Shown here one piece after another: positions 7,929 to 30,581 of a stretch of 32,000 nucleotides of DNA. This DNA comes from Candidatus Brocadia sp. (GTDB lineage Bacteria; Planctomycetota; Brocadiia; Brocadiales; Brocadiaceae). The stretch covers positions 150,001-182,000 of the forward strand of contig CP091279.1 in assembly GCA_021650915.1 (NCBI GenBank), given 5' to 3'. Numbering within the stretch: the first letter of the stretch is position 1; the number at the start of each line of letters is the position of its first letter. The notes under the pieces were generated by a model. It made no database searches, had not been told where the DNA came from, and saw only the letters and a list, made by a program, of their open reading frames with translations. Both the position numbers and the translations under genes were made by a program.

Positions 7929-8317
7929 CCAATTTCCAAAAAAAATTTTAAGATTATCGATACTGAACGAAATTGCGGTTTCCAGATCACGGTTGCCGGT
8001 TCCCCAGGCTATATTCTACGGCATCCCAAAAACCCTGCGCCTGTCTTTCGCAAAACAAAGACTGTCGCCAGCTTATAATATGACGGCAAATCTGAATTAG
8101 GAATGATCCCTGTTAAACGGCAATCAATTTCGTTATCTTTGCAATACTTTTCAACACGATTTTTTAAATTTCCGTGTCCTATAGCAACAAATGTAAAACC
8201 ATCTTTACTTAACTTATTTAATGCCTCCAGTAAATATTCTATTCCTTTTAGTTCTGTAAGCCTTCCCACATAAAGGATAATTTTTTTGTCTTTTGAAATA
8301 TTTAACATTTGCTTCAT
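7929..8317 (-). pseudogene. Remnant of a GT4 glycosyltransferase paralogous to 9091-10203
   Basis: Segments 7929-8050 and 8051-8317 align by eye with 9046-9154 and 9416-9683 of the intact gene, including about 45 bp of 3' flank. About 260 bp of the intact copy and the whole N-terminal half are missing. The junction is out of frame (..ATVFVLRKTGAGFLGCRRI*). Confidence 0.85.
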
Positions 8318-8399
8318 GGTGTTGTTTTCAGATTTCTGTCAAAAACAATTATAGCGAACGAGATAAATGCACTAACATATTTTTATTAGTTACAGGTTC

Positions 8400-8980: not shown

Positions 8981-9090
8981 TGCACGGTGGAAATCTTATT
9001 CAGATATGGTATTGAAGCTTTATACACCTATAAAGGGTGCAGCTACCAATTTCCCAAAAATAATTTCTTAAGATTATTGCGGTTTCCAGA

Positions 9091-10203
9091 TCACGGTTGC
9101 CGGTTCCCCAGGCTATATTCTATGGCATCTAAAAAGCCATGTGCCTGTCTTTCGTATGTCCACTTCTTTATTTCTTCATCAGCGCTTTCGGACAATCTTT
9201 TGTGCAAACCATCGGCATCAAGTATCCTTCCGATAGCTTCATTTAATGCCCTTGAATCCTTCTCTGGAACGACAAATCCATTCTTCTCATTTTTTACCAG
9301 CCCTCCAACACCCGCGCCAACCGCATCCGTTACAACCACGGGACACCCCTGATTAAATGCCTCATTTACAACCAATCCCCACGGTTCTTTGAAAGTTTTT
9401 GTTGTAATGGAAGGTAAAACAAAGACTGTAGCTAGCTTATAATATGGCGGTAAATCTGAATTAGGAATGATCCCTATTAAACGGTAATCAATTTCGTTAT
9501 CTTTGCAATACTTTTCAACACGATTTTTTAAATTTCCGTGTCCTATAGCAACAAATGAAAAATCATCTTTATTTAACTTATTTAATGCCTCTAATAAATA
9601 TTCTATTCCTTTCAGTTCCGTAAGCCTACCTACATAAAGGACTATCTTTTTGTCTTTTGTAATATTAAACTTCTGCTTAATGAGGGTGATTTCATCATCT
9701 TTCACTTCCCTTCCAAAGGTTTCATTATCCACGGTCTGCCAAGCGATAAAGATTTTATTGGGGTCTACACCTTTATTTATTAAAAATCTCTTCCCATGCT
9801 CGCCATAAACTACGATAGCGTCGGAATACTCTTTCAGTACCTTTATTAAAAACCAGGAGAAAAGTTTATATTGCAGTGTCTCGGGGTAATACCAGATTGT
9901 ATGCCAGACGATAAATTTTGCCTTAATCAGTTTTGCAAGCAAAAAGCATCCGATAAACGACCACTTGTTGTTTGTGCATTTGATAATTACATCATATTTC
10001 TTCTTAAAAAGTTTGACCAGTATAGATTTTGTGGGTAAGTAATAGAATCTATCATCATAGAATACCTTCAGGTGTTTGATGTCTTCCTTTGTCTTGTTTT
10101 CATCATCAAAGAAGTACATATCAAAATTATGTTTTTCGGTAAGTAATTTATACAATTTATACCGGTAATGCGTGCATAGATTGGTAATGAATGCGATTTT
10201 CAT
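9091..10203 (-). CDS. GT4-family glycosyltransferase (intact paralogue of the 7929-8317 remnant)
   Basis: 370 aa. 'VLYVGRLTELKGIEYLLEAL...FVLPSITTKTFKEPWGLVVNEAFNQGCPVVVTDAVGA' fits the Glycos_transf_1 pattern. Confidence 0.85.
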   Translation of the reverse strand: MKIAFITNLCTHYRYKLYKLLTEKHNFDMYFFDDENKTKEDIKHLKVFYDDRFYYLPTKSILVKLFKKKYDVIIKCTNNKWSFIGCFLLAKLIKAKFIVWHTIWYYPETLQYKLFSWFLIKVLKEYSDAIVVYGEHGKRFLINKGVDPNKIFIAWQTVDNETFGREVKDDEITLIKQKFNITKDKKIVLYVGRLTELKGIEYLLEALNKLNKDDFSFVAIGHGNLKNRVEKYCKDNEIDYRLIGIIPNSDLPPYYKLATVFVLPSITTKTFKEPWGLVVNEAFNQGCPVVVTDAVGAGVGGLVKNEKNGFVVPEKDSRALNEAIGRILDADGLHKRLSESADEEIKKWTYERQAHGFLDAIEYSLGNRQP

Positions 10204-24022: not shown

Positions 24023-24024
24023 TT

Positions 24025-24272
24025 AGCTTCCCGATTACCACAAGATTACTCACGATTATGGATTTTAATCCAAGAAACCGAGAGGTCATCGTGAGGCGAG
24101 ACTTTAGCTTCTCGATTACCTCTAGATTACTCTCGATTCAGGTTACTTAGCCTCTCGATTACCTCTAGATTACTCTCGATTCAGGTTACTTAGCCTCTCG
24201 ATTACCTCTTGATTACTCACGATTAGAAATTTAAGCTTTTAATCCTGGAAATCGTGAAGTAATCGTGTGGCT
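24025..24272. repeat. Repeat array flanking the 3' side of the GxxExxY gene: an about 85-95-bp block (24025-24118), three tandem 43-bp units (24109-24236) and a second block copy (24192-24272)
   Basis: The unit ctctcgattacctctagattactctcgattcaggttacttagc is repeated head to tail. The blocks contain the stem-loop ctcacgatt...aatcgtgag. Confidence 0.85.
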
Positions 24273-24645
24273 ATAATATCTCCGGATTTTTTACGTATTT
24301 CCTCTTTACCTCAACGCTCTTACCAAAGTTGATCAATAAACCCACTTCTATGCCTGTTGCTTTTAAATAGTTTTTGAGCTGTATTTCATGAATATCGCCG
24401 ATCTTTTCCAGCGCCTTTAATTCTAATACCACTTTATTCTCGACAATAATATCTGCGAAATATTCGCCAACATTTCTATCTTTATATAAAACTGTTGCTG
24501 GTCTTTGTGATTCAGCCTTTAATCCTTTTTCTCGTAATTCCACGAGCAGCGCATTTTCATATACCTTTTCCAGAAACCCGCTTCCCAGGGTATTGTGCAC
24601 TTCAAAGGCACTGCTTATAATCTGCGACGTCAGGTCGTCATGCAT
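24271..24645 (-). CDS. GxxExxY-family protein (PDDEXK_3, PD-(D/E)XK nuclease superfamily)
   Basis: 124 aa. 'LGSGFLEKVYENAL' carries the G-x-x-E-x-x-Y motif. 'ADIIVENKVVLELKA' carries D...E-x-K. 'QLKNYLKATGIEVGLLINFG' is the typical C-terminus. Confidence 0.85.
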   Translation of the reverse strand: MHDDLTSQIISSAFEVHNTLGSGFLEKVYENALLVELREKGLKAESQRPATVLYKDRNVGEYFADIIVENKVVLELKALEKIGDIHEIQLKNYLKATGIEVGLLINFGKSVEVKRKYVKNPEIL

Positions 24646-24654
24646 TTAAGTTTT

Positions 24655-24790
24655 TTTAACCTCCCGATTACCCACGATTCAAGTTACTTAGCTTCCCGAT
24701 TACCTCTAGATTTCTCACGATTAAAACTTTAGGCTTTTAATCCAGGAAATCGTGAGGTCATCGTGAGGCTAGACTTCAGCCTCTCGATTA
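24655..24790. repeat. Repeat block flanking the 5' side of the GxxExxY gene (partial 43-bp unit plus third copy of the about 95-bp block at 24690-24790)
   Basis: By eye, 24690-24790 aligns in direct orientation with 24025-24118 and 24192-24272. Confidence 0.8.
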
Positions 24791-24816: not shown

Positions 24817-26637
24817 TTAGTTTGTTCCAAAAACAAAAGTTGCTGTTTCTATGGGAATATTTTGACTAAAATCTGCCACAAATCCTCTTGCCAATTTTAA
24901 AGCATTATCAATACTGCTTTCTTTGCAAGGTATATCAAGCCGAATCATGAGACTCACCCTATCACTGTTGTCAAGCAAAGAAAACCATATTTCTTTTACC
25001 TTCTCTTCCATCCAATCAACAACATTGTTATCAACACACACCCAATAGATTACTAAAAACCCATCATTTCCCTTCTCGGTATAGAAGCTGCGCGCTTTAA
25101 GAATACGGCTTCCTGCCTGGGCAGGTAAAGCAACGTGGAACTCGGTGTCTGCTGAGTCTTTTATCTTAAATCCAGCGCCGTTAGCGCATATCCTGGGGTT
25201 GTGGAAATTACCGGCATCCACCATGGTAAAAAAGATATTTTCTCCGTTTGTATTAGTATATTCACGCGTAATGCTCTGTTCAATAAACTGGTTCATTTTT
25301 TCCTCTAACTCTAAATCCCAATCCTGCCGCGCATCAACTCCATGCCAGCCCTTAATCTTATAAGGTATTTCTAATTGGGAAAGGATGTCCTGACTGACGT
25401 ATTTTGTTTTTTTTGTGTTTGCACCAGGAGATGCAAAGCAAAAGATAATGGTGAATAACAATAATGCGGTAGTTATATATACCTTCTTGTTTCTATATCC
25501 CTTATTTAGTACTAGTTCATCCCCCTCATCTACACCCCCCCGCCAGGAGTGCGTGATTTTTCCACCCCCTGCGCCCCCGCCAGCGGGGGACAGTTCCTCC
25601 CTCTGTCCCCCTCCATGAGGGGGGATGTGGGAAGTATTTGGCTTGTGTTTCCCCAAAAAATATTCCAAACACATCAATCCCAGTGTGATAATTACAATCA
25701 TAACAATCCCGCTAAAATTATGAAAGAATCCCTGCCCGGCAGCTTCGCCAAAGTAATACGTAATAAGACACAGGATAATTATCCGAAAGAGATTGCCCAG
25801 AAGGGCAAAAGGGATTATTGAGGAGGCCAGGATAACTTTTTTAGAAAAGTCGGCCTTGCTTATGAATACATAAACCAAACCTGCAGAAACCATGGTGATG
25901 AGAGAACGAAAGCCACTGCAGGGCTGTCCTATAAATAGCTCATTATTACCGATAGACAGTAAAAGCCCTTCTCTTGTGATGGGATACTGGAAAGTTTTTA
26001 AGAGTGCCTCTGTTGCGATAGAAATGCCATGACGCATTGGGAGGGTAATACTATCTATAATACCAATAGGAAGAGGTACAAGGAGTATGAGGTAGAGAAT
26101 GGGGAAAGATAAGGCCTTTGTTATTTCCAATCCATAAATACACAACATTAGTCCGTACAAAACCGGGATTAAAGAAAGGGTGGTAAAAAAAATATAATCC
26201 TGACGCCGGCCAAAGACAAATATCGATATTCCAAAGAAAAGAATGAAAATGCCCATGAAATTGCTTGTGAGGTGTAACAATTCACTCCCTTCCACCAAGG
26301 GCAGGGAATTTTTCCACCCCCTGCACCCCCGCCAGCGGGGGACATTTCCTCTCCCTTGCTCCCCCTCAGTGAGAGGGACAAGAGGAATGGGGTTAAGCGT
26401 TTGGAGGTGTTCTCTTAACAGGGTACGTTTGCGCCATACGAGCCAAAGGAACACCGGCATGATAAAATAGGCATGGGTATAATCGGAGCTTGCCCATCGT
26501 CCCTGATAAAGGGCAAAGAAGACGGGGGCGTAGAGCGTCGCTACGAGTATCCAGGGCAAATAATGTTTTATATTACCAATGGATGGAATTACATTTTTCA
26601 TGTTATTTTCACTTTGAAGGATAATTTTATTTACCAT
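24817..26637 (-). CDS. Exosortase fused to a C-terminal EpsI-family domain
   Basis: 606 aa. The polytopic N-terminal domain contains 'IGQPCSGFRSL' (exosortase Cys motif). The C-terminal soluble domain has 'IKGWHG' and 'FHNPRICANGAGF' (EpsI-like). The real start may be M13 (26601). Confidence 0.85.
   Translation of the reverse strand: MVNKIILQSENNMKNVIPSIGNIKHYLPWILVATLYAPVFFALYQGRWASSDYTHAYFIMPVFLWLVWRKRTLLREHLQTLNPIPLVPLTEGEQGRGNVPRWRGCRGWKNSLPLVEGSELLHLTSNFMGIFILFFGISIFVFGRRQDYIFFTTLSLIPVLYGLMLCIYGLEITKALSFPILYLILLVPLPIGIIDSITLPMRHGISIATEALLKTFQYPITREGLLLSIGNNELFIGQPCSGFRSLITMVSAGLVYVFISKADFSKKVILASSIIPFALLGNLFRIIILCLITYYFGEAAGQGFFHNFSGIVMIVIITLGLMCLEYFLGKHKPNTSHIPPHGGGQREELSPAGGGAGGGKITHSWRGGVDEGDELVLNKGYRNKKVYITTALLLFTIIFCFASPGANTKKTKYVSQDILSQLEIPYKIKGWHGVDARQDWDLELEEKMNQFIEQSITREYTNTNGENIFFTMVDAGNFHNPRICANGAGFKIKDSADTEFHVALPAQAGSRILKARSFYTEKGNDGFLVIYWVCVDNNVVDWMEEKVKEIWFSLLDNSDRVSLMIRLDIPCKESSIDNALKLARGFVADFSQNIPIETATFVFGTN
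25556..25624. repeat. GC-rich hairpin repeat, copy A (inside the exosortase ORF)
   Basis: atttttccaccccctgcgcccccgccagcgggggacagttcctcc...ccccctccatgagggggg contains the palindrome CCCCCGC-CA-GCGGGGG. It is about 85% identical by eye to 26308-26378. Confidence 0.8.
26308..26378. repeat. GC-rich hairpin repeat, copy B (inside the exosortase ORF)
   Basis: It has the same orientation and the same core palindrome as copy A. The minor ORF 26169-26381 reads it as ..SPAGGGAGGGK.., identical to the host-frame reading of copy A. Confidence 0.8.
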
Positions 26638-26675
26638 GAAGAAACCACACCTGTTGTGAATAATGTTTGAAATAG

Positions 26676-26914
26676 TTCACCGCAAAGGCCCAAAGAACGC
26701 AAAGTTTTAAAGACCTCTAATAATTCTCTTTACTCCATTTTGGAAGTGGGACATTGAAATTACACAACATTCTCAATTTGTAAACTGATTCCAACAATCC
26801 AGACCCAAGGATTATATAGGACCTGATTGCTACGCCATTAATTGTTTTTGAAAATGCATCACCTTTTTTATCATTTCATAGTATCCTTTGCGCCCTTTGC
26901 GCCTTTGCGGTAAA
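26676..26914. repeat. Second pair of about 28-bp inverted repeats (ttcaccgcaaaggcccaaagaacgcaaag / cctttgcgccctttgcgcctttgcggtaaa) enclosing about 180 bp
   Basis: The arms at 26676-26704 and 26885-26914 are reverse complements and belong to the same family as the 2575-2810 pair. The interior is unrelated to that of the first pair. Confidence 0.7.
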
Positions 26915-26979
26915 GGGGAACCGTTATTGATTAAAGTCGCACAATATGTTTCTTGTTCATACCTTTCAGGGCGTTGCGG

Positions 26980-27075
26980 GTATCGACGTTCATTTTCTCA
27001 TTATTTCACCCCTTAAGGGGTTTTATCTTGTGGTGTGCTTTTTTCTATAATCATGTCATCCCTTCGGGATTTTCC
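26980..27075 (+). repeat. About 95-bp repeat (two hairpins, 'cacccttaagggg' and 'catcccttcgggat'), copy 1
   Basis: It aligns with the reverse complement of 29885-29974. The core gcttttttctataatcatgtcatcccttcgggatttt is nearly identical. Confidence 0.75.
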
Positions 27076-29884: not shown

Positions 29885-29974
29885 GAAAAATCCCGAAGGG
29901 ATGTCATGATTATAGAAAAAACGCACCACCATCTTCAACCTCGTAGAGGTGAAATATCGGGAAAATAGCGATAC
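29885..29974 (-). repeat. About 95-bp repeat, copy 2 (inverted relative to 26980-27075); a partial third copy lies at 30236-30262
   Basis: The reverse complement reads gtatcgctattttcccgatatttcacctctacgagg...gcgttttttctataatcatgacatcccttcgggattttt. Confidence 0.75.
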
Positions 29975-30156: not shown

Positions 30157-30235
30157 TGTCATTGCGGGGGGCCTTTTCCGAAGCAATCTCCCCGTTTTCA
30201 TAAAGGAACTTTGGTTGCGGCTGTGCCGCGCTATG
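30157..30235 (+). repeat. 78-bp repeat, copy b (see 799-876)
   Basis: It is in direct orientation with about 95% identity by eye to copy a. Similarity stops exactly at ..ccgcgctatg in both copies. Confidence 0.8.
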
Positions 30236-30581
30236 CTATAATCACGACATCCCTTCGGGATTACAGAATCACTATTTTGTTCGCTCGTAGTGATGATGAG
30301 CGAAGGTACGCTGAATAGACACGAGAATTTTTCAAAAAACTAAATGATTACAACACTACGAAATTTTTAAGCTGCGGTTGTAGAGCGACGAGGCTCGTCG
30401 CCCTACAGATAAAAAGCCACCGAGAGTTTGATTGATGTATAGGAATTTCAATCTTCGTGGACGCACCTTTTCCCAATACGCCAGAACACAGGCGTACAAC
30501 CTGTGACCATCGGCGCTGCCAAAGACCGTCTGATTAAATTCCGATTTTACGTTTCCTGGAGCACAGGATAACTATCTGCCT

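Follow-up and report, generated by a model that had tools for sequence, protein, structure and literature searches.

Two GC-rich hairpin blocks lie inside one exosortase/EpsI gene of Candidatus Brocadia fulgida, within a stretch of 32,000 nucleotides (nt) that was analysed at its full length (contig CP091279.1, positions 150,001 to 182,000; hereafter the window). Both blocks, here called copies A and B, are very probably degenerate copies of a Brocadiaceae family of transposable elements of the miniature inverted-repeat kind (MITEs) that inserted in-frame in this gene. The evidence supports regarding them as a further example of a known phenomenon, the mobile palindromic repeat that is translated within a host protein; what is distinctive is that no peptide frame is conserved, that the element is a mosaic with a nested 32-nt module (M1), and that remodelling is ongoing at both sites. 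A profile of the 160-nt form of this MITE, run with nhmmer, matched the window solely at 25509-25634 (E 8.9e-25) and 26286-26409 (E 1e-24), and a 103-nt profile without the core module gave weak matches at both blocks, with E values of 0.0015 (25509-25568) and 0.008. The left terminal inverted repeat (TIR) is recognisable in each copy (Table 1), and the right ends are degenerate.

Two repeat copies in an exosortase/EpsI gene

The copies form the sole direct pair reported by a repeat finder inside the open reading frame (ORF), at 25532-25611 and 26284-26363, with 78% identity over 80 ungapped nt; when gaps are allowed, the similar stretch grows to about 105 nt. The window contains the 19-mer CCCCCGCCAGCGGGGGACA at two positions only (25574 and 26326; 0.00 expected from 100 shuffles), and the two blocks, at 65-68% GC in a background of 30-45% (window mean 39%), are its only C5/G5 hairpin clusters. 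Each copy holds one M1 core and, just 11-12 nt off, a diverged and inverted second hairpin (M2), the layout of M2 in copy A being the same as that of inverted partner modules in other genomes. The two cores differ by one base, and because their spacing of 752 nt leaves a remainder of two on division by three they are read in different frames (SPAGGGAGGG versus VPRWRGCRGW). In each copy a single one of the three minus-strand frames is free of stops, namely the frame of the host gene. No Rfam family was found in the window at gathering thresholds.

Table 1. Parts of the two repeat copies in the window, with the peptides that the host ORF encodes there
Feature	Position	Strand	Sequence, reading and placement
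Copy A	about 25509-25655	+	probable degenerate MITE of the 160-nt subfamily; residues ~328-377 on the minus strand (LGKHKPNTSHIPPHGGGQREELSPAGGGAGGGKITHSWRGGVDEGDELVL); exosortase-EpsI inter-domain linker, between TM 310-328 and TM 386-404
Copy B	about 26274-26420	+	probable degenerate MITE; residues ~73-122 (LLREHLQTLNPIPLVPLTEGEQGRGNVPRWRGCRGWKNSLPLVEGSELLH); loop between the second predicted helix and TM 123-141; right boundary uncertain (26390-26422)
Core M1, copy A	25561-25592	+	TCCACCCCCTGCGCCCCCGCCAGCGGGGGACA; minus-strand reading SPAGGGAGGG
Core M1, copy B	26313-26344	+	TCCACCCCCTGCACCCCCGCCAGCGGGGGACA; minus-strand reading VPRWRGCRGW
M2, inverted and diverged second hairpin, copy A	25604-25633	+	TGTCCCCCTCCATGAGGGGGGATGTGGGAA
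M2, inverted second hairpin, copy B	26357-26387	+	TGCTCCCCCTCAGTGAGAGGGACAAGAGGAA
Left TIR remnant, copy A	25509-25525	+	GTACTAGTTCATCCCCC; minus strand encodes ..GDELV; aligned to GTA(A/T)CAGTTCA(C/G)CCCCC
Left TIR remnant, copy B	26274-26289	+	GTAACAATTCACTCCC; minus strand encodes ..SELL(H)
Degenerate hairpin, copy A	25535-25555	+	CCCCCCCGCCAGGAGTGCGTG; sits at the M3 position of the MITE
M3-type hairpin, copy B	26287-26306	+	CCCTTCCACCAAGGGCAGGG; equals CCCCTCCCACCAGGGGCGGGG of the MITE consensus
Junction-spanning peptides of the ORF			GNVPRWRGCR, EELSPAGGGAGGGK
TM, transmembrane segment (residues of the ORF).

An earlier, sequence-only reading of this DNA had described a repeat pair of about 70 bp lying in one orientation within the exosortase ORF. 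The pair and its orientation hold, and the unit proves to be longer, at about 147 nt per copy, as tabulated. That reading was also right that the copies differ in codon phase, the ORF translation including GNVPRWRGCRGWKN and EELSPAGGGAGGGKI as it had claimed, and that neither copy breaks the host ORF, the frame of 606 amino acids (aa) being open throughout. It correctly put copy A in the linker that joins the exosortase domain to the EpsI domain; copy B, which it had set after the first transmembrane (TM) helix, actually comes after the second of the predicted N-terminal helices (residues 54-69/81). Its view that both sites tolerate insertions agrees with a structure model, described below, in which the inserts are the coil of lowest confidence. 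The hairpins do fold as RNA, as it had proposed checking, yet on either strand they are just modestly stabler than shuffled sequences (z -1.9 to -3.1).

The host ORF (606 aa, 24817..26637 on the minus strand, intact) matches Pfam Exosortase_EpsH (PF09721) at residues 30-324 (E 8.7e-54) and DUF3485/EpsI (PF11984) at residues 399-594 (E 7.3e-16), and is thus predicted to be an EpsH-type exosortase fused to a C-terminal EpsI domain. Its matches to NCBIfam exosortase models fall into two stretches, with a break at the loop insert near residue 123. Residues C240, R285 and H306, which we take to be the catalytic residues of the exosortase family, are invariant in an alignment of 18 orthologues, and the top-scoring relatives in a protein search are Candidatus Brocadia proteins. 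In public databases the B. fulgida protein (P0002, 406 aa) is 100% identical and begins at the internal Met201 (24817-26037), so that its annotation omits the 200 N-terminal residues, copy B among them. Full-length orthologues indicate that the real gene is the 606-aa ORF and that the start of P0002 is an annotation error; the insert-bearing gene thus explains the mis-annotated start of the public entry.

Three predicted TM segments lie near the inserts: residues 123-141, the last exosortase segment at 310-328, and the anchor of the EpsI part at 386-404. An AlphaFold2 model of the protein has a mean predicted local distance difference test score (pLDDT) of 56.6; residues 82-122 and 332-373 are coil in it and have its lowest values, 22-33 (24-33 for residues 82-122). 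Basic residues stand beside both loops (RKR, KHK), which suggests that both loops are cytoplasmic.

The Brocadiaceae MITE family and turnover in the host gene

The whole layout of the window copies is shared by four copies in the Brocadiaceae genome S40-1 (loci L014, L021, L032 and L102), and these define the ends of the MITE, GTA(A/T)CAGTTCA...GCTGAACTGTTAC, and hence the TIRs of the family, GTA(A/T)CAGTTCA...TGAACTG(A/T)TAC. A metagenome scan with the right MITE end gave 97 loci, of which 80 (L126-L205) were analysed together with the four from S40-1, and 35 distinct insertion sites were left once duplicate sites had been removed. Lengths ran from 91 to 160 nt, clustering at 103 (the mode), 127 and 160, and there was no coding capacity. 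The octamers that flank the element matched at six or more of eight positions at 29 of the 35 sites, perfectly at 13, where shuffled pairings would give about 2.2 sites; these duplicated 8-bp targets were AT-rich (22% GC). TIRs with 8-bp target duplications are the classical signature of a MITE. On comparison of the consensus sequences, the 160-nt form consists of the 103-nt MITE plus a nested M1 of 32 nt, the inserted sequence being TCCACCCCCTGCGCCCCCGCCAGCGGGGGACA.

The lengths of these elements suit insertion into genes. The main size classes differ by 24 and 57 nt, and 103+8, 127+8 and 160+8 are all multiples of three, so that insertion of such an element with its 8-bp duplication causes no frameshift; length plus eight was divisible by three at 23 of the 35 sites. 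Most copies of the family are intergenic, and five of the 35 sites are clearly in-frame inside long ORFs, on either strand. The host genes elsewhere encode Mfd (L102), a CobB-like amidotransferase (L032), a GT39 glycosyltransferase (L021) and HypF (L168), the remaining case being at L202. When the Mfd protein with its insert was compared with solved Mfd structures, the aligned domains bordered the insert and the stretch between them was unaligned.

A second inverted-repeat pair (26676-26704 and 26886-26914, 86% complementary) lies directly upstream of the exosortase start, in the region 26669-26920. Its ends are AATAGTTCACCGCAAAGG.., a related arm occurs at 2783-2816, and a similar end, GTAACAGTTCAGCTCACCGCGGAGGCGCAA, is found in metagenome loci L197, L199 and L220. 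This pair probably represents a second MITE family, one whose termini are related.

Orthologues show the inserts of the exosortase gene to be specific to the Brocadia lineage. The alignment held the Brocadia clade and nine sequences (P0010-P0018) from other anammox genera, among them Candidatus Loosdrechtia and Wunengus; these nine, at 40-50% identity, have zero residues across the loop block and an unrelated linker, as would be expected from the earlier suggestion that both segments are lineage-specific insertions. Brocadia orthologues have inserts of varying length at both sites, the DNA of which is a mosaic of a few GC hairpin modules, and inserts with intact frames are present in independent assemblies of five Brocadia species. 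The linker insert is missing from P0004, P0007 and P0009. Among the Brocadia orthologues each of the three reading frames of the core is in use (VPRWRGCRGW, SPAGGGAGGG and PPLAGAQGV), and a tandem double core, read in two frames, occurs in the linker of Brocadia UTAMX2 and in the loop of P0007. Nucleotide identity to UTAMX2 is 97-100% outside the blocks through the exosortase domain, and the indels inside the blocks, of 36, 9 and 30 nt, are every one divisible by three; the two remaining indels, of 6 and 3 nt, fall in the EpsI part. The open frames and the invariant C240, R285 and H306 indicate that the gene stayed open, and presumably functional, during this turnover at both sites. As a separate observation, identity to UTAMX2 drops sharply near gene position 1350 and is 60-72% beyond it, in the EpsI domain (window 24817-25290), which suggests recombination or domain replacement in that part.

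If the blocks are MITE insertions, a transposase acting in trans would have placed copies at two AT-rich sites of the exosortase/EpsI gene, one in the loop that follows N-terminal helix two, the other in the inter-domain linker, before the sampled Brocadia species diverged. The lost right ends and duplications fit insertion before that split, and the copies in the window are old and degenerate, not recent insertions. Their survival may be put down to the near-absence of stop codons, to a length that with the duplication is divisible by three, and to sites that tolerate a disordered, Gly/Pro/Arg-rich peptide, which presumably has no function. Entry in different phases then leads to translation of the same DNA in different frames. 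Since that time gains, losses and tandem duplications the size of a hairpin would have reshaped both blocks, with selection holding these indels to multiples of three.

The 32-nt module and DUF559 genes across phyla

A more surprising result than the feature in the window is the occurrence across phyla of the nested module and, with it, of units that encode a DUF559 protein. The module, TCCACCCCCTGCRCCCCCGCCAGCGGGGGACA, was searched by a 23-nt exact pattern in one genome per species, and at least 120 stretches were found. Hosts among the matches listed were Brocadia, Kuenenia, Wunengus and other Planctomycetota, several families of Bacteroidota, Smithella/Syntrophaceae and Ignavibacteriaceae; there were also matches in a Brocadia genome that is complete and in contigs of chromosome scale (AP021856.1, OY820932.1 and one of 4.8 Mb from Cyclobacteriaceae). 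Two taxonomic labels (loci L006 and L074) are doubtful: a match in a 'Burkholderiales' metagenome-assembled genome has module flanks near-identical to those in Kuenenia hertensis (L022), and the single archaeal match (Methanobacterium) is on a 1.9-kb contig. The ends of the module, which extends leftward of the search pattern by 9-10 nt, are sharp in at least 55 independent flank contexts, and whichever boundary was assumed, no target duplication showed up in 55 such contexts. A diverged partner in inverted orientation often accompanies the module, and inverted doublets of 85-120 nt occur at L019, L053, L066 and L115. Solo modules of 33 nt lie in-frame in the variable linker of a Brocadia DNA methyltransferase (L011, L065, L087, L089 and L097), where two further, independent hairpin insertions are found at the same place; the orthologues of this enzyme are too divergent at the linker to fix the junctions. 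The further copies that the sequence-only reading had looked for thus exist, in many unrelated genic and intergenic contexts. By its distribution the core is a separate module, spread apart from the MITE across several phyla, and in the two window copies its near-perfect match to consensus, set against the 65% of the MITE scaffold, would make it younger than that scaffold or subject to homogenisation of its own.

The sole recurrent small gene beside the module encodes a DUF559 protein of 130-150 aa (PF04480, E 1.4e-34; PDB 3hrl, 'endonuclease-like protein', E 3.9e-21). By tblastn, 17 of the 120 module loci among the matches listed had a DUF559 match, and every such match that was compared by hand touches the module or lies within about 120 nt of it. 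The module codes for the last ~10 residues of the DUF559 protein. A motif classifier recognised this module-encoded C-terminal peptide in 61 of the best 120 among 3,173 homologues, and by eye many of the 59 unclassified ones have close variants or truncated versions of it. The C-terminal peptides span all three frames (PPPAPPPAGD, PRQRGT-type and PASGG-type), which indicates that the thing conserved is the DNA and not the peptide. There were 23 units bounded by inverted modules; eight of these, at 451-501 nt, contain DUF559, and the remainder are non-coding and 85-290 nt long, some being clear internal deletions of the DUF559 gene. When four DUF559 genes were picked by protein similarity alone (from Cytophagales, Nitrospirota, Scalindua and a deltaproteobacterium), all four had a module over the stop region and one or more inverted modules just upstream of the start.

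Three inverted modules in tandem, with a 41-nt period, stand upstream of the Nitrospirota DUF559 gene (L224:460-600), and partial tandem half-modules lie beside units at L059 and L091. In Scalindua (L225:601-1059) and in the deltaproteobacterial locus (L226:601-1059) the DUF559 unit is directly upstream of a ResIII gene, in L226 between this gene and an N6_N4 DNA methyltransferase gene; the Brocadia gene with the in-frame solo module belongs to the same Pfam family of methyltransferases (N6_N4). Rfam searches of two DUF559 loci (E<=1) gave nothing meaningful, plasmid and phage collections had no match to a DUF559 unit, and a scan of viral contigs gave a single match. A library search for literature on DUF559 returned no paper that ties the family to repeats. 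The window itself has no DUF559 homologue by tblastn, and its copies are thus not module-bounded DUF559 units; they would be at most non-autonomous relatives of such units.

We infer from these arrangements that DUF559 may mobilise or homogenise the module. More tentatively, and with the odds in our estimate somewhat against it, we propose an undescribed class of minimal mobile DNA in which the 32-nt module serves both as terminal repeat and as recognition element. Its complete members would be units of about 450-500 bp that encode just a DUF559 nuclease, of the Vsr-like PD-(D/E)XK kind, with inverted modules at their ends; the non-coding forms of 85-290 bp and the solo modules would be derivatives of these, and the class would extend over Planctomycetota, Bacteroidota, Desulfobacterota, Nitrospirota and others. 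The nuclease would drive break repair or gene conversion that holds the modules near-identical, and the same process could seed modules into coding sequences and into other repeats such as the Brocadiaceae MITE.

The remaining repeats of the window were noted in passing. Directly downstream of the exosortase gene is a gene for a 124-aa GxxExxY protein (24271-24645, minus strand; TIGR04256, E 2e-42), flanked on both sides (24023-24790) by copies of a 43-nt repeat (TTAGCTTCCCGATTACC...) together with repeats of 59-113 nt; it has the look of one more small gene of a nuclease family surrounded by repeats. A 27-35-nt repeat, TTTTTTCTATAATCATGTCATCCCTTCGGGATTTT, has three copies in both orientations, 93-97% identical (27039-27073, 29887-29921 and 30236-30262). 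Segments of 79 and 279 nt are repeated, at 90-92% identity and 1.1-1.4 kb apart, within 7972-8330 and 9076-9694, and a 72-nt direct repeat (GGGCCTTTTCCGAAGCAATCTCCCCG..., 810-881 and 30169-30240) has 94% identity over a distance of 29 kb.

Alternatives, known systems and implications

Several points weigh against the two blocks being MITE insertions. Neither copy in the window has a recognisable right TIR or target duplication, so that family membership rests on profile similarity, the score of which comes mostly from M1; and there was no near-identical empty site from which the precise junctions in this gene could be read. No transposase was found between pairs of MITE ends 0.4-4 kb apart in ~1.6 Mb of fetched loci, the intervening DNA holding ordinary genes or other repeats, and the AlphaFold2 model is poor overall and thus weak evidence on topology. 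Moreover, M1 matches its consensus at 32 of 32 and 31 of 32 positions where the rest of each copy stands at 65%, and the core may therefore be younger than the MITE scaffold or have been homogenised separately. This last disparity is also the starting point of another explanation, in which M1 reached both blocks on its own through the DUF559-linked process, or in which gene conversion from other copies of the module keeps overwriting it, the blocks being accumulations of hairpins in tolerant loops, like bacterial interspersed mosaic elements (BIMEs). The sharp ends of M1 and its solo occurrence without target duplication in at least 55 unrelated contexts would suit such a history, as would the solo 33-nt modules and the two other hairpin insertions at one methyltransferase linker, and the tandem copies and the presence or absence of modules at both exosortase sites in orthologues. 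Nonetheless we rate it as doubtful: the window has no DUF559 gene, and the order TIR-M3-M1-M2-tail of both copies fits the 160-nt consensus end to end, for which insertion of the composite element is the simplest explanation. Independent arrival of M1 and its carriage within the MITE are not mutually exclusive.

That the repeats were instead selected within the gene itself, as functional Gly/Pro/Arg-rich linkers or as mRNA hairpins that pause translation or aid co-translational membrane insertion, might be argued from the keeping of open-frame inserts in at least five Brocadia species, from the TM segments that adjoin both sites and from RNA folds somewhat stabler than shuffles (z -1.9 to -3.1). 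We think this unlikely, given that the same DNA is used in three frames and on both strands across genes and orthologues, which leaves no peptide conserved, that the loop insert is absent outside Brocadia and the linker insert absent even from three Brocadia-clade proteins (P0004, P0007 and P0009), and that copies of the family are mostly intergenic. Duplication or gene conversion within this one gene, with no mobile element involved, would accord with two copies in the same orientation here and none other in the 32-kb window; this we hold to be very improbable, since the two copies differ in frame and, inside the element, have flanks of different sub-variants, and the same element or core is found in many unrelated genes and genomes. 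As to an artefact of assembly or binning, every cross-phylum match is in a metagenome-assembled or enrichment-derived genome, but the inserts have intact frames in independent assemblies of five Brocadia species, and modules are matched in the complete Brocadia genome and in long contigs (AP021856.1, OY820932.1 and the 4.8-Mb Cyclobacteriaceae contig). Degenerate repeats of the CRISPR type were considered because one Klebsiella CRISPR repeat variant in the literature has, by string match, 20 nt in common with the core hairpin; this identity was rejected, regularly spaced arrays being found nowhere and the copies being single, doublet or irregular. To an artefact or a CRISPR origin we give next to no credence.

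Rickettsia palindromic elements (RPEs) are palindromic repeats of ~100-150 bp, dispersed in a compact AT-rich genome and often in-frame, where they are translated as an extra peptide; the peptide that they encode is conserved (PMC10969869). The sequence-only reading had likened the blocks to RPEs, and this stands as regards a mobile repeat translated in frame but not as regards a conserved peptide frame. The Brocadiaceae element resembles RPEs in lying in-frame in unrelated genes whose ORFs it leaves intact (the window gene, Mfd, CobB-like, GT39 and HypF). It differs in being read in three frames and on both strands with no frame preferred; in its clear TIRs and 8-bp target duplications, its GC-rich mosaic structure and its nested, separately distributed module; and in its host lineage, the Brocadiaceae of the Planctomycetota, where about five of the 35 sampled sites are clearly intragenic. 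With classical bacterial MITEs (Correia/NEMIS, ERIC, Nezha, Coxiella QMITE) it shares small size, lack of coding capacity, TIRs, a fixed-length duplication, many copies, size subfamilies and occasional in-frame intragenic copies; no autonomous partner of it was found in the fetched loci, and, unlike theirs, its interior is built of GC hairpin modules common to unrelated elements. The ends of IS66 start with GTAA and its duplication is 8 bp (PMC11946415). These two features are alike in the MITE, whereas the ends differ further in (GTAAGCG... in IS66, GTAACAGTTCA in the MITE); derivation from IS66 is possible, and we offer it as a lead.

The module itself invites comparison with repetitive extragenic palindromic (REP) sequences. 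Like REPs and their compound forms, BIMEs and REPINs (REP doublets forming hairpins), it is a GC-rich imperfect palindrome, of 32 nt, found singly, in REPIN-like pairs of opposite orientation that span 85-120 nt, and in BIME-like mosaics. As with REPs and the REP-associated tyrosine transposases (RAYTs), inverted copies of it lie on either side of a small gene of a nuclease family, and target duplications are lacking. A criterion for REPs is a GTAG or CGTC tag at one end (PMC3733652). The module TCCACCCCCTGCRCCCCCGCCAGCGGGGGACA has neither tag, and the gene that it flanks encodes a DUF559 PD-(D/E)XK nuclease rather than an HUH/Y1 RAYT; DUF559 was the only recurrent small neighbour of the modules, and no second recurrent cluster was seen among the neighbours, which were not individually scanned for Y1 transposases. 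Unlike REPs, the module overlaps the C-terminal codons of the flanked gene and also has copies inside genes. REPs are typically lineage-specific, whereas the same module sequence is common to several phyla.

Vsr-like (EDxHD) homing endonucleases such as I-Bth0305I show that a Vsr-like fold can serve a selfish mobile gene (PMC3239194, PMC2677866), and they set a precedent for DUF559 acting to move or home the gene that encodes it. Those endonucleases are found in introns and inteins and have one cognate site; the DUF559 units are free-standing, are bounded by inverted hairpin modules, and are accompanied by non-coding derivatives and solo modules. Fungal mitochondria have comparable GC clusters or double-hairpin elements, short GC-rich palindromic mobile modules in AT-rich genomes that are in some cases in-frame in coding sequence. 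These are organellar, unrelated in sequence, and without an associated nuclease gene of the DUF559 type.

The two copies in the B. fulgida gene document MITE insertions that, like RPEs, lie in-frame, here in the membrane sorting enzyme of an anammox bacterium. Their hairpin-sized, frame-preserving turnover is a concrete route from selfish DNA to new and variable disordered loops of proteins. If the DUF559 nuclease does mobilise or homogenise the modules, this would give a role to DUF559, a large family of unknown function, and would provide a PD-(D/E)XK counterpart to the REP/RAYT paradigm.

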